Shown here: in pieces, positions 1 through 11,619 of the stretch
How positions within the stretch are numbered: position 1 is the first letter of the stretch
Layout of the letters: every line of letters begins with the position of its first letter
From: Cyanidioschyzon merolae
Lineage: Eukaryota
Direction: 5' to 3' (one strand)
Assembly (NCBI GenBank): GCA_000091205.1
Contig: AP006484.2
DNA: 64,000 bases
Translations under genes and position numbers: made by a program
Notes under the pieces: model-generated
Databases searched by the model: none
Told to the model about the DNA's origin: nothing
What the model saw: only the letters and a program-made list of their open reading frames with translations

Positions 1-350
1 AACTTTTCGCGAACTTTGAACGCAGAGAGTATGCACGTGCCGGTACCATCGCGCCAGAAGACGTTCGTTTGGCGGTTGGGGAACCACTTGAAGACCTCCC
101 GGCATCGTCAGGCCCGAAACTACGCGAACTTGGCTTGCCTATTAGCCTCCGTGGCGGCCGTCTCTTCTTGGATGTGATCGCTGGACCGGATAAGCACTTT
201 CTGATTTGCTCGAAAGGAGAGATTCTCAGCGCCGAGCAATGTGTTCTCCTGAGAATGCTCGGCATTCGATTGGCGACGGCTCGCCTTCATCTCCGTTACC
301 GTTGGGATGCAGAGCATTGCAAAGTGGAAGAGCTTGGCGACCAGGAGTAG
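1..350 (+). CDS. 3' end of a gene that starts upstream of the window; the C-terminal fragment resembles the MRT4 / ribosomal uL10 (P0-like) family
   Basis: The frame is open from base 3 to the stop at 348-350. The tail ...SAEQCVLLRMLGIRLATARLHLRYRWD resembles the MRT4/uL10 C-terminal block LEQAQLLRLFGVKMAEFKV..KWMWD. The call rests on a short partial region. Confidence 0.4.
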   Translation, partial: LFANFERREYARAGTIAPEDVRLAVGEPLEDLPASSGPKLRELGLPISLRGGRLFLDVIAGPDKHFLICSKGEILSAEQCVLLRMLGIRLATARLHLRYRWDAEHCKVEELGDQE

Positions 351-1673
351 TTCACGGTCTTGAACGCGGTAACGTGGGATTCTAGCCCAAACTTTGAGAG
401 AAACGGTTCTTCGAGACACGATATATATGCGAAACTGCTGGTGCGTCGTTTCACAATGTAGGCGCAGTGTCTGCCGGAAGCAATGCGCGCACGCTCACAA
501 CGAGAAGCACCTGGGGTCGGTAAGGAAACAAAATCAGCCGGTTTACGGTGGATTATTTACTCGTGTACAACCTTGTGGATCGTTCGTTACGCAGCGGTTC
601 TGTATTTTCTCACGCAACGAATGTTCGCGGTATCTGGAAGACTCCACATATTACCCTGCTGATCGAATGTGATCTGAATCCTGTCGTCCTACGATTCGCT
701 TTCTGGTCGTGAATGCTCCGCGTTCTCGTGCATGCATGGTAGCGTAGCATATGAGTTTGATCTTTCTTCTGGGAAGCAGCTTCCATCGACAGATGCCATT
801 CTGCCTGTCAATGAAAATGAAGCAGAACGGCTCTTTTGCCTGGACTTTATATAGCATGCCTCCTTGGTTCGTGGCGAGCTCCACCCGCGTAGAGGAGCAT
901 TTCCACTAGCGCCGTAGCTTGTACTCAGAAGCAAGGAGCGCCTGTGGAGAGCTATTTCTCGAGTTCCCAGGATCGCTTTTGGACGAAAACTCCGCCAATT
1001 CGGCCTACGGAGGCACGCGAAGCAGACCCTGTCCCATCTGATGAAACCGAGTTATCGGATCGTCCACTTCCGTCATGGATGGACTTTTCGAGCCAGGCGG
1101 CCGAGCCCCGGATTCGATTCAAGAGCAAAACTCTTATCTATGTTTAAAGATGCGGCGGAGCATGACTCGGTTTCACGGAGTATCACGCGTGCCCATTATC
1201 AGACTAGGGAACCCTGGATGATGGAACCAGTACGAACGCTCACTCTAGAGCGCTTTGGTAAAAGCGGCGATCAATTGACTTGCGCACACGGTGACCGTGG
1301 AACCACACAGAACCGCAGCAGGTGCGCGTTTGGTGCCGCTGAGCAGTCTACGTTCTCGGGTCCAACACCACGAGTCCCATGAACAAGAGTAGCCTCAACG
1401 GCGGGGTTGCTGTTCTCAATTCTTGTCACGCGTCTTCGCATGACTTGTCCTGAATCGATGCTTGGTATCTGTACAGATATCCTGTCTGTGCCAGAAAACA
1501 CCAGTGCTCCGTCACCAAACGTCGGTGGCGCGCCTAAAGTCGCCACTTTGAGGTTCGCACCGTTCCCCACGGAGACGGCGTCAGGCACCGGCTTCCGACG
1601 CTGCAATCCAGCCAGACTCGCGATCTCGAAGGGAGGTTCGTCTTGCTTTCCGTGCTCGCCTGTGCAAAAGGTG

Positions 1674-1781
1674 CGGTGAGGACGAGATTCGAACTCGCGC
1701 GCTCAAAGAGCATGTACTTAGCAGGCACACCCGTTAACCATGGCGGTACTTCTGATACAGAAGTATCTCCGGCACCTCACC
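1674..1781 (-). tRNA. tRNA-Ser (anticodon GCU), type II, interrupted by a 26-nt intron in the D-loop
   Basis: On the minus strand the acceptor pairs perfectly over 7 bp (GGTGAGG with CCTCACC) and a G discriminator follows. The T-arm is GCGAG-TTCGAAT-CTCGT. The anticodon stem-loop is TGTGC-CTGCTAA-GTACA with U33 and A37, giving anticodon GCT. The variable hairpin is TGCTCTTTGAGCG. The exons align to canonical eukaryotic tRNA-Ser-GCU (TGCCGGAG / TGGTTAACGGG), but 26 nt (ATACTTCTGTATCAGAAGTACCGCCA, plus-strand 1741-1766, containing an 8-bp hairpin) sit between D-loop positions ~15/16. Confidence 0.65.
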
Positions 1782-1889
1782 GTTAAGTCCTGGGGACCTG
1801 TGCGCAAAACCATATATATACACCCAGATCGCGCGCGATTGGCATCGGCATGATGCGCGTCGCCGGTGGTGATGCTAAGCGCTGCCGGC

Positions 1890-2762
1890 TTACGCATTCG
1901 AGCACTTTACATTAGCTTGATCGAAAATATGGTCGGCCCATTTCTGGTAGCCGACCTCATTTGGATGCACTCCATCAAGGTGCGAGAAAAGTGCCGTAGG
2001 CGCTTCTCCATTCGTCGACAAGGCGGGTATATAACGCACGCGATCTCCAAAACGAGCGGCAACGCGACGCTTCGCGCTGTCGTACTGCTCTGCCACGAAT
2101 GCTAACATGGAACGAAGCGGCTCCATTTGGAATTTGGGGACGTGTTCGATCATGGAACCGTTCACAGCGGGAAGCAAAATGGAGCAATCTGGTGAGAGGC
2201 GGAGGGTTTTGCGCGCGGCCCCTATAAGCGCCGCGAGCCCCTCTTCAAAAGCTGACGGTGAGTACGAACGCCAGGCTCGCTTCCAATCGTTAACCCCACA
2301 AAGAATCACAACCATGTCTATCTTTCGCGCTGGCTCTGGTTCTTGATTGACTTCACGGGATGCGCGCGGCAGTACATGCTCAACCAGGTCCCGCACGGAA
2401 GCTCCGGTCATCCCAACAGCATGCCATTCCACCGGCGCAGATAGCGTACTCGCCAAGCGCTTCGCGAGCCTTCGTGCGAGCACCGGCCCCCCGTGAATGC
2501 AGTTTGTTCCGGGGTTCGACTGGCACGTGCAACCAACGCCAGTCACGAGGCTGTCACCCAGAAACACAACAACACGGGGCACACCCTGTTGGTGAACGCT
2601 CTCTAGGCCGTGGCTCGGACCTCGACACTCTGGTGGCGATCTATATGTCCAGGCAAGTGTTGCTGCCTGTCCTGCTCCAACTGCAGCGATTCCAGAGATT
2701 CCCACCACGAGCGCGCGACAAACACTAGAGAAACGGACAAAAACGCCACCTGCTACCGGCAT
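1890..2762 (-). CDS. SGNH/GDSL-family hydrolase (esterase/lipase-like)
   Basis: Block I is VVVFLGDSLVTGVG with the Ser nucleophile, block III is VILCGVNDW, and block V is HLDGVHPN (DxxH). The ORF is 290 aa. Confidence 0.7.
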   Translation of the reverse strand: MPVAGGVFVRFSSVCRALVVGISGIAAVGAGQAATLAWTYRSPPECRGPSHGLESVHQQGVPRVVVFLGDSLVTGVGCTCQSNPGTNCIHGGPVLARRLAKRLASTLSAPVEWHAVGMTGASVRDLVEHVLPRASREVNQEPEPARKIDMVVILCGVNDWKRAWRSYSPSAFEEGLAALIGAARKTLRLSPDCSILLPAVNGSMIEHVPKFQMEPLRSMLAFVAEQYDSAKRRVAARFGDRVRYIPALSTNGEAPTALFSHLDGVHPNEVGYQKWADHIFDQANVKCSNA

Positions 2763-2923
2763 TCACAGGGTAGAGGTCGCAGGTGCGCGACGGATGAGCT
2801 CTGAGAATAGAGCACCTCTCAGACAGGAGCCACACACTCTCGATATTTGGAGCCTGCTTTTACTGTTCCACTTCAAACTCCTCGCTATGTCGCCATTCCG
2901 GTTTCAAGGTAAACAGGTTTTAT

Positions 2924-2953
2924 CGCTGTTGCTGTTGCTGCTGCTGCTGCTGC
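2924..2953. repeat. (CTG/CTGTTG)n trinucleotide microsatellite
   Basis: The run gctgttgctgttgctgctgctgctgctgcg reads as poly-Leu in the artefactual ORF 2794-3072. Confidence 0.8.
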
Positions 2954-3941
2954 GTTGGTGGTGTACGCTACACCGATCCCCAGCATCGCATCGCATCCAG
3001 TTGCCCGTCGATTCGGACACAGCGCTTGATCCGCAGCGGAGCGCGCACGCCATGTGCGTCGCGCATCGGTGATGCAGCCGATCTTCTCTCAGTACATCCG
3101 GGAGAAAGTACCGGTCGTGTAATTTGAAGACAGCGTGCAGCGTGATGGTCGCTTTCCTGAATGCCAGGATCCATTGTACAAGATGGGATCCACTGTCCAT
3201 GGAAGAGTTCTGTCAAACGAGAAAACCGGCAGTGTCTAGAACGCCCTGCGCATGCGCTCGGGATCAGCAGTGCGTGGCGGATTTGGCATGCCGGCGTGTG
3301 CGAACGCGCGATGGTGATCGCCTCTGTGCACGGGAGTCGGCAGACCTGACGCTCGTGTGGCTGCACATTCGGTGATGCCGAGGAGCGTGCTTGTCGGGCA
3401 AAAAGAACCTTAGACTAGGACGCGTAGCTGGTGATGTACAGGAGTGAGCCTGTTACAGCAGAAACGAAATCTCGGGGACTCGTGGCTTTTGGACGGCGCG
3501 GCGTGTGCTGCCGGCCGGGGCATTCCGCTCAAGTCAGGAGCACTCTGCCGCCGTTATACATTGCGGTATTGCAAGAATATATGATAGAGACGAGCCGGCT
3601 CCGAAATCATGGTCTCACCATACGCGAGAACGATCAAAAAGAATGCATACCCGAAAAAAGTCATCCATGCGTGCAACGCTGTATTCGCGAGTCTCTCAAG
3701 TGTGACGCATGAGTAGAACAGGTGATCGATGCTCGGCGCCGCGTGAACGGCGAAGCGGCGTCGAATGGCACAGGGTCACGAAACGTTGGCATCAACGTGA
3801 CAGGCTGTCGTCCATGCGTGTGTCCATACGTGCGCGCATGCATGCGCGTCTGTCGATGCAGACACGTGCATTCGAAAGCGCCCATATTTCATTTTCGAGT
3901 GTTCTTGTGAAACTTTACCTGCAGGGTTCTTCACCTTCTTC

Positions 3942-4517
3942 ATGTCTCGCATTTACCTACCAAGCATGGAAATGATAAGCCAGCACCTAGATGACGATCC
4001 ACAACTCGAGGAGCCCAAGGACGCATTTCTCCTCACATGGCCAGATGCAAGCTCGAGTGCGAAACCGACGCCGAGTCTGCCGACAGGCGCTCGAGCTCCG
4101 AAAGCTGCACGTGATCGAGAAAACGCAGAGCATGCCATTGAGGCGCCATTACCGAAGAGAAACATGCCTGTCGAGTCCCACGGAGCATGCGAAAAGCACT
4201 GGCAACAACTGACTCTGCAAGTTGAGCGGCTCCAGGCGGATCTCAACTTACTCGAGGGAAACTTTCTGTGCCTCCATCAACAGCTGAGCGGTGTGCTGGA
4301 GCGGATGGATGAACTTGCCGCTGAGAGCCAGGCGAATCCAATATGTACCCCATGGGTACCAGACCCAGTTGGGAGCCTACACCCAACTGAATTCCATCTT
4401 ACGCCGCTGCAAAGCAGCCCATCTGACAGCGGCTCTTCTGCGGATGTTGAATCCACGCTTGCTCCAGAGATGTCTGCGCACTGCAGACAACAAGATGCAG
4501 ACAACTCGTTGAATTAG
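3942..4517 (+). CDS. hypothetical protein with a short coiled-coil segment
   Basis: The ORF is 191 aa and has a heptad-like stretch QQLTLQVERLQADLNLLEGNFLCLHQQLSGVLERMDEL. No recognisable domain was found. Confidence 0.3.
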   Translation: MSRIYLPSMEMISQHLDDDPQLEEPKDAFLLTWPDASSSAKPTPSLPTGARAPKAARDRENAEHAIEAPLPKRNMPVESHGACEKHWQQLTLQVERLQADLNLLEGNFLCLHQQLSGVLERMDELAAESQANPICTPWVPDPVGSLHPTEFHLTPLQSSPSDSGSSADVESTLAPEMSAHCRQQDADNSLN

Positions 4518-4680
4518 GGCAATCATCCAGCATGCAACCTTGTCCATGGAGCAAACAGGGATTCGAGTCGTCGGGAAGGACTTCATAGGATGCTATGGCG
4601 ATAGTCCCACGGGAGCGCTTCCGATCGCATCTGTCAGTCTAAACATTTTCCGTAGCGGCATGAACGAGCCGACTCGTTCG

Positions 4681-5571
4681 CTAGAGTGCAAAACGCTCAA
4701 AGGCTAACACCGAAATCCCCGGACCGATAGCTTCGCGCACTGTTCGCTGTCGACTGCGAGAGCGTTCGTCGGCAGAGTCGGTAACAAGCACTTGGTCCAG
4801 GAGACAGCGCTCAGCGATGAACGCTTCGAACTTGACACTTCTGCGCTGGGGAGGCGAAGCGTTCGCGGCACCCAATTGCCGAGGAGCGCGGAACGCTTCA
4901 TCTTCCGCAGGCATCAGGCTTTCGTAGACGGACGGCTCGATATCGGCCGCGGAAACGTACTGCGGATTCATTGCAGCGATATGCATTGCAACCTGTCGGC
5001 CGAGTGGCGACGGTGCCGAGCAAGCAACCAAAACACCAACGCGTGCGTGATTATGCAAATAGGAATATATTCGACCGTCCCGAAACGTGTCCGGTACTTG
5101 CAAACGGATGCCCCGGTGGACTGTGAGATTCTCGTCAGTCTTTGCGACCGCTTCTCGTAGCTCGTCGCGCAATGCCTCAAGCAGCTCCTGTACATTGGTT
5201 ACCGCTCCGCGCAGGAGCAGCTCTAGTCCGCGCTGACTAACACGTTGGACGACAGGCAACTGGTGCACAAAGTCCGTCTCGGAACGGATCTCTACCATGG
5301 CACCGCACCGTTGATCAGGTGCGACCTCCAGTGCAATGAGCCCACTCCTCGTGCTGCGCTGCGCTTTCTTTCGCATCACGGTCTCTGCGTAGCTTGACAA
5401 AAGCCCCAGTGCTGCGTCCAGCTTGCCGTCACACCGTTCTAATGCCTTTTTACACTCCATAACCGGGGCACCCGTCAGGTCACGAAGCTGACGGATGGAG
5501 GCTGCATTCCAGTTCGGGCTGGAGCTTAACCAGCGCCTGCCAATGTGCAGGAGAAACTGCGACCTAACCAT
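4681..5571 (-). CDS. tsf: elongation factor Ts, organellar (mitochondrial-type)
   Basis: The N-terminal UBA-like EF-Ts signature IRQLRDLTGAPVMECKKALERCDGKLDAALGLL matches EF-Ts LRERTGAGMMDCKKAL.. A basic presequence-like N-terminus MVRSQFLLHIGRRWLSS precedes it. The ORF is 296 aa. Confidence 0.8.
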   Translation of the reverse strand: MVRSQFLLHIGRRWLSSSPNWNAASIRQLRDLTGAPVMECKKALERCDGKLDAALGLLSSYAETVMRKKAQRSTRSGLIALEVAPDQRCGAMVEIRSETDFVHQLPVVQRVSQRGLELLLRGAVTNVQELLEALRDELREAVAKTDENLTVHRGIRLQVPDTFRDGRIYSYLHNHARVGVLVACSAPSPLGRQVAMHIAAMNPQYVSAADIEPSVYESLMPAEDEAFRAPRQLGAANASPPQRRSVKFEAFIAERCLLDQVLVTDSADERSRSRQRTVREAIGPGISVLAFERFAL

Positions 5572-7471: not shown

Positions 7472-9217
7472 ATGGTTGCCGAATCGAACGGCTTGTACCT
7501 AGGTCTTGATCTGAGCACGCAATCGCTTGATGCGGTGGTTATCGACCTCGATGACGCCCTGGAAAGCGCCTTCGAAGCGAGTGTGAACTTTGAGACAGAC
7601 CTACCACACTACGGCACGAAGAGCGGGTTTATCTACGACCCGGAGAGCAAGCGTGCGGTGGCACCGACGCTCATGTTTGCCGAGGCGCTCGAACTTGTGC
7701 TCGAAAGACTACGGAGTGCTAAGTGCCCGTTCGAACGCATTAGAGCAGTTTCGGTGTCTGCGCAGCAGCACGGCTCTGTGTATTGGCAGAGGCCTCCGCA
7801 CCTGCCGGATACCGAGAAAGACAGCCAGAAGTCGCTGGTCGCCTGTCTGCAAGAGCCAACGACTGCCTTTGCGGTGCCGTTCAGCCCTATATGGGCGGAC
7901 GCCTCGACAACTGCAGCTTGTAGAGCGATTGAGGCTGCGTATCCTGGTGGAGCGAGGCAACTCGCCCGCGACACCGGTTCCCGTGCCTATGAGCGATACA
8001 CTGCCGCGCAGGTGGTGAACCTCGCGCTCCATCAACCAGCGGCATATCGGCAGACGCAGCGGATTCAAGTTATATCGGCGGGTATGGTATCGATATTGTG
8101 CGGCAACTGGTGTGCCGAGGATGTCGCTGATGCGAGCGGAACGCTGTGGCTGCAGCTAGGTGCGCTGCGGCCGCGCTGGGCTCCCAAAGCGCTCGCTGCA
8201 ACCGAGCAGGCTGCGGGACTCGAGTCCGGCACCTTGCATGGAAAGTTAGCAGAATCACCAGTGCTCTCGTTCACAGCCGCTGGACCAATCGCTCCGTACT
8301 TCTGTCATCGTTTCGGTTTCCGCCCCGAGTGCTTGGTCGTGACTGGAACTGGTGACAATCCCTCATCGGCAGCAGGCCTGGCTATGCGACTGGGTGATGT
8401 GTGTATATCGCTGGGTACTTCGGATACGGCTTTCGGGCGCACGAGCTCATGCGAACCCCAGTTGTTTGGTCACGTTTTTCGCAGCTCACTTGATCCGCTC
8501 GCGTACATGCCGATTCTCGTGTTCTCGAACGGTTCGCTCACCCGTGAGCGCATTCGGGGCCCAGATCGCTCCTGGGAGGACTTTGACGCCTCGCTGGAAC
8601 GCACACCGGCGGGAAACCAGGGCCTCCTAGCACTGCTTACATTTGTGGATGAGATTCTTCCTCGCTTACCTGCCGGTCTGATGTACTTTGCCCAGATCGA
8701 AACGGAATCGACCAGCTCGGCACTCGCGGAGCTGAAACTGGCCCTGCTTCGCCCCGAGGACGTTGCATCACACGATGCCGTTGTTCGTGCTGTGGTAGAG
8801 CAGCGAGCGCTTGCAATCCGCTACTATGGAGAGCGCATCGGGTTACCTTTCCCACCGCAACGTGTTCTGCTCACAGGTGGTGCTTCTCAGTCGCGGGGCA
8901 TCCGAAAAGTGATTGCGGATGTGCTGGGTGCCCCTGTTTATGTTTTGGAACGTGGCAAAGCATCCTTGGATGCGCACGTGACCCCATGGAACACGGCTGC
9001 TCGCGGGGCTGCCCTGCGTGCCGCTTATGTGCAACGCGGTGAACAACAGGAGTTTGCTGACTGGGCTTCAAGCATTCATGCAGTGCGGTATCGCCGGGTT
9101 GCGGAGCCCAATCCCGATGCGTTCCAACTCTACACGAGTGTTATGTTGCCTGCATATGCTCGGTTTGAGGCACTGGTGGATGCGCAGTCTCGAACTGGGC
9201 CAGTTTCCTCCGCGTGA
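7472..9217 (+). CDS. XYLB: xylulose kinase (FGGY carbohydrate kinase family)
   Basis: SVSAQQHGSVYW, FSPIWADASTTAACRAIEAAYPG, DTGSRAYERYTAAQV, VTGTGDNPSSAAGL, SLGTSDT, VFSNGSLTRERIR and LTGGASQSRGIRKVIADVLGAPVYV are collinear with human XYLB. The ORF is 581 aa. Confidence 0.92.
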   Translation: MVAESNGLYLGLDLSTQSLDAVVIDLDDALESAFEASVNFETDLPHYGTKSGFIYDPESKRAVAPTLMFAEALELVLERLRSAKCPFERIRAVSVSAQQHGSVYWQRPPHLPDTEKDSQKSLVACLQEPTTAFAVPFSPIWADASTTAACRAIEAAYPGGARQLARDTGSRAYERYTAAQVVNLALHQPAAYRQTQRIQVISAGMVSILCGNWCAEDVADASGTLWLQLGALRPRWAPKALAATEQAAGLESGTLHGKLAESPVLSFTAAGPIAPYFCHRFGFRPECLVVTGTGDNPSSAAGLAMRLGDVCISLGTSDTAFGRTSSCEPQLFGHVFRSSLDPLAYMPILVFSNGSLTRERIRGPDRSWEDFDASLERTPAGNQGLLALLTFVDEILPRLPAGLMYFAQIETESTSSALAELKLALLRPEDVASHDAVVRAVVEQRALAIRYYGERIGLPFPPQRVLLTGGASQSRGIRKVIADVLGAPVYVLERGKASLDAHVTPWNTAARGAALRAAYVQRGEQQEFADWASSIHAVRYRRVAEPNPDAFQLYTSVMLPAYARFEALVDAQSRTGPVSSA

Positions 9218-9840: not shown

Positions 9841-11619
9841 CTATGCCTTTTTGACTGTTGACTCGCGCGCGAGTGCAGCGCTTCCCCGCGGATCCAGCAG
9901 AACGACATCATTGACGGTGACCGCGTGGCTGAGCACCGGGCTTCCATGCATAGCTTCCGCGTCCGTGGAAACGGGTGCCCCAGAGGCTCCACCGGCGCCG
10001 CCAAAGCGCATTGCAGCTGCTCGCCACAGACTCTGATAGAGATTTGCATAGGCCGCTCTTTCACTCTGAGTTGAGAAGAAACAAATCGTAGCTGAAGCCA
10101 TCGTCCAAGTGAAATAGCGCCATAAGCTGGCTTCTTCGGACGGTGTGCAGAGCGCCCTGTCCCAGGAAATGGCGTAAAAGTCGTAGGCCAGCCACGTGGA
10201 TGCTACCAATCGCAAAAAACTGATCATCACATAATGCTTCAAGCTCGAATCAGGGCGTGGCGAGTGCATATAACTAGCCGCGCTTATCAGCACGGACTCA
10301 CGGAGCAAAAGGCGAATGCACTGTGTGATCCACAACAACGAATACGTCGCCGCAATCATGCATTGAACGAACCCGAAGCGCAAAACGCTCGCCAATCTCG
10401 CGATGTGCTGCGTATCACCACGAAGCAGCAACTGCGACAGAAACAGAACGAATCCAAGCAAACCAAACACCAGGTTTCCCATCGCTTCCACCGCACTGGT
10501 CGTTGCCTGCTGCGCATATCGGGTGACGATTGCTCCAGCGAGGCTCACGGTCAGAAGCAACGCCAGGAACTGCAGGACGCCAACCATCAGTTGCGAAGTG
10601 AGCTGCCACCAGCTCGCGTCCCGGTTCAACCCTCGCCCGTGCAACATCGGAGGGTCCGCGGGCGCAGGCAACTGTGCGCCCAGGTGCGCGTCTCGTGTGT
10701 CGGAGGCGGTCGCTTCTAGCGCGCTGTTGATTGCAGTCGACCCGCCGTGGCCCGAAAACTCGTTACGACAATGCTGTAAAAGTGACTCGAGCGCACGCTT
10801 CTCTTCGGCGCATTCCTGTCGGGCGACGTTGACTGCCGCCTTGCAGGATGCATCGTTCTCTGTTACCCGCCATTGATCACGGGGACCGGCCGCAGCGAAA
10901 AGCGCTTGGCGCAGATCACCTGCTTGCTTTAGCAAGCTATCTCTTTCGCGGGCTACGCGACCCAGTTGGTCTTGTAGCATCAACTCTCGGTCGCGGAGCG
11001 CCTTATACTCGAATCGAAGTTCCGAAACGTTCGCAACATCGGGGTCGAAAAAAAGATTCTTGATCACAATCGATCCAACGCGGGTGTCCTTTACCAGGGA
11101 AATGATAGGCCTCTCTGGACGCTCTGTGAGGAACGCGTGCCAGTCGCCGAAACCGTAGTCCAACTCGTGTCGTCGCTCAAGCTCCGCACGTTGCTGCTCG
11201 GGCGGAAGTTTCGCCTTCTGCAAGCGAGACAGCGCTCCACGTTGTCCTTGTTCCAAGCGAGCTGAGACTGTTTCAGCCTCACTCGCTATGCCGAAAACCG
11301 TCTTGGGTAGCGTGTCGGAGCCAGTGGCACCGCGTTCACCGACGCTCGCTGGTGAGCTCCCAGTTGCTGGCAGCAACACCACAAGCAAAAGCAACAATAG
11401 GAAAGAGGTCAACGTCAAGCAGTGCCAAGATGCGGGTGTGAAAATATGTCGCGTGCGCCCAGGCTGCACCATTGGTGGGAGGCAAGACCCCGAGAACCCG
11501 CTCCTGCTGAAGAGAATGAGCTCAACAATCCAAAATCGAGTTGCGCGAAGAATTCGGCTCACGACGTCGATGATAGGCGAACAAATGGGGGCGTTGGCGG
11601 CGGCGTACCGTCCGTCCAA
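9841..11619 (-). CDS. hypothetical multi-pass membrane protein with a central coiled-coil segment
   Basis: The ORF is 592 aa. Hydrophobic helices occur near the N-terminus (LLLLLLVVLLPA) and in the C-terminal third (VGVLQFLALLLTVSLAGAIV, LVFGLLGFVLFLSQLLL, and others). A charged heptad region (ELERRHELD...RELMLQDQLGRVARERDSLLKQAGDLRQAL) lies between them. No family was recognised. Confidence 0.45.
   Translation of the reverse strand: MDGRYAAANAPICSPIIDVVSRILRATRFWIVELILFSRSGFSGSCLPPMVQPGRTRHIFTPASWHCLTLTSFLLLLLLVVLLPATGSSPASVGERGATGSDTLPKTVFGIASEAETVSARLEQGQRGALSRLQKAKLPPEQQRAELERRHELDYGFGDWHAFLTERPERPIISLVKDTRVGSIVIKNLFFDPDVANVSELRFEYKALRDRELMLQDQLGRVARERDSLLKQAGDLRQALFAAAGPRDQWRVTENDASCKAAVNVARQECAEEKRALESLLQHCRNEFSGHGGSTAINSALEATASDTRDAHLGAQLPAPADPPMLHGRGLNRDASWWQLTSQLMVGVLQFLALLLTVSLAGAIVTRYAQQATTSAVEAMGNLVFGLLGFVLFLSQLLLRGDTQHIARLASVLRFGFVQCMIAATYSLLWITQCIRLLLRESVLISAASYMHSPRPDSSLKHYVMISFLRLVASTWLAYDFYAISWDRALCTPSEEASLWRYFTWTMASATICFFSTQSERAAYANLYQSLWRAAAMRFGGAGGASGAPVSTDAEAMHGSPVLSHAVTVNDVVLLDPRGSAALARESTVKKA

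Follow-up and report, generated by a model that had tools for sequence, protein, structure and literature searches.

We analysed a stretch of 64,000 nucleotides (hereafter the window) and followed up an earlier note, which had described a tRNA gene with an intron at a non-canonical position in the D-loop and had suggested a Cyanidioschyzon-like red alga as the source. That attribution proved correct, since three proteins encoded in the window are exact matches to Cyanidioschyzon merolae 10D. These are the SGNH/GDSL hydrolase CMB050C (1890-2762, minus strand), mitochondrial EF-Ts (4681-5571, minus strand) and xylulokinase (7472-9217, plus strand), each 100% identical to the 10D protein. The tRNA-Ser(GCU) gene lies on chromosome 2, directly downstream of CMB050C. 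It occupies 1781..1674 of the minus strand and reads GGTGAGGTGCCGGAG|ATACTTCTGTATCAGAAGTACCGCCA|TGGTTAACGGGTGTGCCTGCTAAGTACATGCTCTTTGAGCGCGCGAGTTCGAATCTCGTCCTCACCG, a total of 108 nt made up of a first exon of 15 nt, an insert of 26 nt and a second exon of 67 nt.

Exon 1 (1767..1781, minus strand) supplies tRNA positions 1-15, comprising the 5' strand of the acceptor stem, U8 and G9, the D-stem strand C10-G13, and A14 and G15; it is the same in all orthologues. The putative 26-nt intron (ATACTTCTGTATCAGAAGTACCGCCA; 1741..1766, minus strand) sits in the D-loop at 15/16, a position defined by in silico excision and by orthologue introns at the same site. Exon 2 (1674..1740, minus strand) supplies positions 16-73, with the remainder of the D-loop, the anticodon arm, a long variable arm, the T-arm, the 3' strand of the acceptor stem and G73, and is identical at 67/67 positions in all orthologues. 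The acceptor stem is a perfect helix of 7 bp (GGTGAGG/CCTCACC) followed by a discriminator G, and no CCA is encoded at the 3' end. The anticodon loop CTGCTAA is uninterrupted and contains the anticodon GCT for the AGY serine codons (1720..1722, minus strand; called by ARAGORN on the spliced form), the T-loop is GTTCGAATC, and the variable region of 14 nt includes a 4-bp stem, GCUC/GAGC. A long variable arm and a discriminator G73 are identity elements of serine tRNAs.

All the elements that the earlier note had listed for a type-II tRNA-Ser(GCU) on the minus strand are thus present. When the 26 nt were cut out in silico between positions 15 and 16, ARAGORN identified the resulting 82-mer as tRNA-Ser(GCU) with a score of 114.0. 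This 82-mer has the class-II cloverleaf expected of tRNA-Ser(GCU), including the 7-bp acceptor stem, a 5-bp anticodon stem, U33, a 5-bp T-stem and a T-loop of the GTTCRANYC type. The canonical T-arm motif occurs only once on both strands of the 64-kb window, so the tRNA-Ser locus is not a chance match. Furthermore, the minimum free energy (MFE) fold of the precursor (-39.5 kcal/mol, z = -2.7) retains the acceptor, anticodon, variable and T arms. AGT and AGC together account for 29 of the 93 serine codons in the three confirmed genes of the window, and the use of AGY codons in these genes means that a GCU anticodon is needed. The exons are colinear, which rules out a circularly permuted or split gene. 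A canonical eukaryotic intron at 37/38 is likewise ruled out, as the insert lies between G15 and U16 and the anticodon loop is intact.

We scanned about 2,500 distinct single excisions exhaustively to place the splice sites. All the top scores (114) came from the removal of 25-28 nt after positions 12-17, that is, within the D-loop and not outside it, in agreement with the proposal that the 108-nt gene carries 26 extra nucleotides between positions ~15 and 16. Seven excisions tie at the ARAGORN score of 114, and their junction resolution is no better than about 2 nt. [quoted passage not shown] After excision at 15/16, the D-arm reads CCG-GAGUGGUUAA-CGG, with A14, G18-G19 and A21, and it is canonical only in this form. 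The D-loop GAGUGGUUAA is also that of yeast and human tRNA-Ser. The splice sites that restore this canonical D-loop are the same as those predicted from the hairpin in the insert, which lie 1 nt ahead of the hairpin and 4+2 nt past its end.

This hairpin, h', consists of 8 bp (TACTTCTG/CAGAAGTA) closed by the loop TAT (1747..1765, minus strand). It begins 1 nt past the 5' splice site and appears in both the MFE and the centroid folds. An 8-bp hairpin had been described before, and it is present; the loop given for it, ATA, had been quoted from the plus strand, and on the gene strand it is TAT. Next to the hairpin lies the intron strand CCGC of helix H (1743..1746, minus strand), whose partners in the exon are G13, G12 and C11; at the fourth position there is a C10-C mismatch in this gene, whereas Cyanidium has a C-G pair. 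The insert is therefore laid out as a 3-nt bulge (A14-G15-a16), the 8-bp hairpin, CCGC, and 2 nt (CA) before U16. BHB motifs are reportedly cut after the second nucleotide of each bulge, with the bulges 4 bp apart (Marck and Grosjean 2003; Xue et al. 2006). Applied here, this rule predicts cuts 1 nt before and 6 nt after the hairpin, which are the junctions that the tRNA consensus requires.

Folding the exon-intron junctions in search of a BHB motif, as the earlier note had proposed, gave a relaxed form of the motif and not the strict one. The strict form, hBHBh', is defined in the Fig. 2 legend of PMC3728597 as two 3-nt bulges, a 4-bp H between them, and flanking helices h and h' of more than 2 bp each. 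At the present locus H comprises three pairs and the C-C mismatch, and there is no outer helix h past the 3' site; in Cyanidium H has the full 4 bp, yet h is also absent. What we found corresponds to a relaxed BHB (BHL, HBh' type), with one 3-nt bulge between H and h' and, on the opposite strand, the second site at a distance of 4+2 nt, and the lack of the outer helix h after the 3' site is the reason for assigning it to the HBh' type. In the C. merolae segment, the proposed motif has a free energy of -10.4 kcal/mol compared with -11.4 kcal/mol for the MFE structure, which pairs the same strands slightly differently. These structural features support the view that the 26-nt insert would be a BHB-like, endonuclease-type intron in the D-loop.

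The D-stem strand CCGG is palindromic, and window positions 1767-1772 and 1741-1746 (minus strand) resemble a direct repeat. The intron strand (CCGC; CCGG in Cyanidium) resembles the exon because it pairs with the palindrome CCGG. The intron CCGC could also pair with the 3' strand CGG of the D-stem, so that the precursor would contain a pseudo-D-arm. The relaxed-threshold Rfam alignment has this arrangement, and the same pairing is seen in the MFE fold of one Cyanidiococcus yangmingshanensis locus (L021).

Signals for transcription by RNA polymerase III (Pol III) flank the gene. Counting from tRNA position 1, a TATA-like element, TATATATAT (1812..1820, minus strand), occupies -39 to -31 and is a likely Pol III promoter. 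All four lineages compared have a block of 8-9 nt of A and T only; it coincides with this element in C. merolae and falls between -47 and -36 in the other three. The 5' leader (1782..1811, minus strand), which RNase P would remove, varies fast among close relatives. In 20 environmental contigs from very close relatives (L001-L020), the TATA-like block is unchanged beside this variable leader, of which about 18 nt carry 8-9 substitutions and one indel, and the whole 108-nt gene shows a single change, T to C in the hairpin loop. Downstream, a T-run, TTTT (1666..1669, minus strand), starts 5 nt past the discriminator and is a likely Pol III terminator; T-runs follow the gene in all orthologues. 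The terminator is only TTTT in 10D, and it is T5 or T6 in 20/20 environmental relatives, through C-to-T changes just upstream (1666-1673).

Orthologous, syntenic loci were reached through homologues of the adjacent protein CMB050C in Cyanidiococcus yangmingshanensis (L021 and L022; 74% identity), a metagenome relative (L024) and Cyanidium caldarium (L023; 62% identity). At all four loci, the tRNA closely follows the hydrolase gene. The exons are identical to those of C. merolae at 82/82 positions (15 nt + 67 nt), and the orthologue introns occur at the same 15/16 site with lengths, in the order just given, of 26, 26, 25 and 47 nt. In blastn comparisons with L021-L024, the exons alone align, at 100%, and none of the flanking DNA does. 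Thus, the intron site and splice geometry are fixed and the exons invariant, while the intron sequence and length have drifted. The formula of the intron, an A followed by the hairpin, CCGC or CCGG, and 2 nt, holds in 6/6 distinct sequences. Folding of the intron-centred segment (C10 to G19) gives precisely the proposed motif as the MFE structure in Cyanidium and in L024; L021 shows the motif in its full-length MFE structure but not in that of the segment. Compensatory changes, such as U-A to C-G and A-U to G-C, occur in four of the six alignable h' pairs (alignment A1), and the three pairs of H are invariant across lineages. None of 500 shuffles scored as high in covariation as the real alignment, and displacing the structure by 1-3 columns lowered the score greatly, although with only six distinct sequences the statistics are modest.

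The same intron site and invariant exons in three genera indicate that the intron is older than their divergence, so that on this sequence comparison it would date from before the separation of Cyanidioschyzon, Cyanidiococcus and Cyanidium. It is more doubtful whether the intron, besides being older than this split, has been kept by selection rather than as a neutral relic, for instance because a modification, the order of processing or correct Pol III expression depends on it; we consider this combined proposal rather unlikely. Outside these genera, no tRNA lies close to the neighbouring gene's orthologue in Porphyridium purpureum, so that synteny is absent there, and our homologue search found no Galdieria orthologue of CMB050C. 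In Cyanidium caldarium, the gene order of L023 8910-13141 is rearranged relative to window positions 1-5571; there, ribosomal protein P0 is encoded upstream, in the same orientation, and EF-Ts has its place on the opposite side. Even so, only some 150 nt separate the SGNH hydrolase gene from the Cyanidium tRNA downstream of it. Since the tRNA stays next to the hydrolase despite the rearrangement, the gene pair appears to be a conserved unit.

Taking the gene structure, the splice motif and the comparative data together, we estimate a probability of roughly 0.9 that this is a nuclear tRNA-Ser(GCU) gene of C. merolae 10D split at 15/16 by a 26-nt, protein-spliced, BHB-type intron. The best-surviving alternative, itself very improbable, is that the same gene is spliced in another register, in which 26 nt (CCGGAG...AAGTA) are removed between positions 9 and 10 and the downstream CCG copy serves as the D-stem strand. 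Excision at 9/10 also yields an 82-nt tRNA-Ser(GCU) that ARAGORN accepts, and its register agrees with the D-arm alignment of the partial Rfam match; however, the score is 103.7 compared with 114.0, the mature D-loop would be CCAUGGUUAA, without the universal A14, and no bulge or helix motif surrounds the 9/10 junctions. More tellingly, positions 13-15 of the mature tRNA would then vary by lineage (CCA, CCG, CUG, CUA and GUA) while the other 79 nt are invariant, which is not credible. This register exists only because the CCGG palindrome makes its intron partner look like a copy.

Even less likely is that the gene is dead, a pseudogene broken by the insertion that is neither spliced nor used. 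Default tRNA finders and Rfam do reject the locus, as a pseudogene would lead one to expect, but exons that are 100% identical across three genera are difficult to reconcile with loss of function when the neighbouring protein falls to 62% identity and the flanks cannot be aligned by blastn. Moreover, promoter-like and terminator-like elements are kept, the splice geometry of the intron is preserved through compensatory changes, and the AGY codons require a GCU anticodon. We therefore consider the tRNA-Ser(GCU) locus to be, in all likelihood, functional, as judged from these comparisons.

Least probable of all is that the 26 nt are retained, forming an additional hairpin in the D-loop of a mature tRNA of 108 nt, or are excised by some means other than the BHB endonuclease. 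The hairpin is stable and structurally conserved, but the length of the insert (25-47 nt) and its sequence vary while the distances from hairpin to junctions are fixed, as would be typical of a processing signal, not of a functional tRNA domain, and a retained insert would interrupt the D-loop in the interval from G15 to G18-G19. According to the text of PMC3728597, moreover, all C. merolae tRNA introns assayed by RT-PCR are removed. We also ruled out a group I or II intron by the size of the insert: 26 nt are far too short for a self-splicing intron of either group.

Under the preferred reading, a BHB-type intron at 15/16, the sequence and structure elements are what is shown here, and from them we infer the following pathway. 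With the internal A box split by the intron, Pol III would start from the TATA-like element upstream of the gene; transcription would end at the T-run. In the precursor, the 5' strand of the D-stem (C11-G13) would pair with the intron CCG to form helix H, the 8-bp hairpin of the intron would form h', and A14-G15-a16 would form the 3-nt bulge. The tRNA-splicing endonuclease (cmSen2/cmSen34/cmSen54 according to the literature) would cut after the second bulge nucleotide (15|16) and make a second cut on the other strand, 6 nt past the hairpin, after ...CCGC-CA. A tRNA ligase would then join G15 to U16, restoring the D-loop GAGUGGUUAA and allowing the D-stem to form. Finally, RNase P, tRNase Z and CCA addition would complete the 82-nt tRNA, in which the junction would read ...CCGGAG|UGGUUAA... 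(CCGGAG|UGGUUAACGG). The spliced junction had no matches in metagenome and metatranscriptome contigs, and this result carries no weight either way because the same collection failed a positive control: DNTGGTTAACGGGTGTGCCTGCTAAG had no matches in the metagenome contig collection, although JGI contig Ga0438750_00599 (L024) carries it, and the collection does not cover all JGI samples.

Introns of this kind have been known in the same strain since 2013. The earlier note had regarded ectopic tRNA introns as a hallmark of a few lineages such as Cyanidioschyzon-like algae. The text of Soma et al. (2013, Sci Rep 3:2321; PMC3728597) reports that SPLITS and SPLITSX, applied to the 10D nuclear genome, identified 42 BHB-type introns in 27 of 43 tRNA genes. 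According to the same text, 14 of the 42 introns lie in D-loops, their lengths range from 11 to 69 bp, and the motif types are hBHBh', hBH, HBh' and 'no H'. It also states that most C. merolae tRNA genes are preceded by TATA-like sequences, and describes downstream T-stretches, no TFIIIC homologues, an endonuclease made up of Sen2, Sen34 and Sen54 with Sen15 undetected, and a lack of sequence similarity to the disrupted tRNA genes of Archaea. For three C. merolae tRNA genes, northern blot and RT-PCR revealed spliced or mature products (PMC3728597). Later reviews and PlantRNA 2.0 repeat these findings and annotate these genes.

The present gene shares with the set of Soma et al. the organism and strain, a short D-loop intron, the relaxed HBh' motif, a TATA-like sequence upstream and a T-stretch downstream, and probably differs from it in nothing; as far as its text goes, the paper does not include conservation in Cyanidiococcus and Cyanidium. 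Ser(GCU) is not named in the text of Soma et al. 2013 (where 'Ser', 'GCU' and 'GCT' do not occur as separate words), of the 2014 reviews, of PlantRNA 2.0 or of a 2026 review, which describe the class. Nevertheless, this exact gene was very probably catalogued in 2013, because the 43 genes are called a sufficient anticodon repertoire in the text of PMC3728597, Ser(GCU) is indispensable for AGY codons, and the genome was searched with SPLITS and SPLITSX. In the literature that we searched, we found no cross-genus comparison of the 15/16 intron of tRNA-Ser(GCU). The kind of feature is already known, and its conservation across genera is a modest addition.

Several other systems provide points of comparison. 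Archaeal non-canonical BHB introns, especially crenarchaeal ones, also combine a 3-nt bulge, a 4-bp helix and a flanking helix, occur at many cloverleaf positions including the D-loop, and are processed by an endonuclease and a ligase, whereas the present gene is a eukaryotic nuclear gene, with an enzyme reported to be of the Sen2/Sen34/Sen54 type. The nuclear tRNA introns of Chondrus crispus, located in the D-loop at 20/21 and in the T-loop at 58/59 (PlantRNA 2.0; Cognat et al. 2022), are likewise nuclear, red-algal and, in the D-loop, non-canonical; standard tools miss them or call the genes pseudogenes, and RT-PCR validated splicing for three genes. They differ in their fixed site, 20/21 as opposed to 15/16 here, and belong to a distant red-algal lineage. 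The canonical eukaryotic intron at 37/38 presumably shares the chemistry of endonuclease and ligase; with the intron at 15/16, however, splice-site choice by measurement from the mature domain (the ruler mechanism of yeast and human) cannot work in the same way. The permuted tRNA-Ser(CGA) of Ostreococcus tauri has a BHB-processed discontinuity at the same position, 15/16 (Soma 2014, PMC3978253), but the Ostreococcus gene is a circularly permuted one from a green alga, whereas the gene here is colinear. The shared position may be a coincidence, or 15/16 may be a favoured site for BHB discontinuities in serine tRNAs.

Ectopic nuclear tRNA introns show that a eukaryotic splicing endonuclease can act away from 37/38 in a motif-driven, archaeal manner. 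This point had already been made for this strain in 2013, and the present locus adds no new principle. Nonetheless, an intron site that is stable in at least three genera provides a small, clean comparative data set on what an endonuclease of the C. merolae type needs. The minimal conserved motif consists of a 3-nt bulge, an H of at least 3 bp and a hairpin, without an outer helix.

Genes of this type are also easily overlooked. Across the whole window, the unspliced locus yielded no tRNA call by ARAGORN with default settings, whose intron mode covers anticodon-loop introns only, and nothing by Rfam at the gathering threshold. At a relaxed threshold, Rfam gave only a partial tRNA match of 25.2 bits at 1749-1681, and ARAGORN with lowered thresholds gave a mis-registered Ser call, c[1675,1756], with a score of 95.0. 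Weak Asn and Gln calls, made by ARAGORN at the lowered thresholds with scores of at most 92, fall inside open reading frames and were treated as noise. Because standard finders miss or mis-register such genes, an AGY-serine tRNA will seem to be missing from annotations of Cyanidiophyceae made without BHB-aware tools, and public annotations of these genomes may contain a wrong tRNA-Ser model or none. In Cyanidiococcus yangmingshanensis (L021), positions 11016-11097 are called as an 82-nt 'tRNA-Ser' that begins within the intron, with an ARAGORN score of 101.6 and an Rfam tRNA score of 29.7 bits, against a gathering score of 29.
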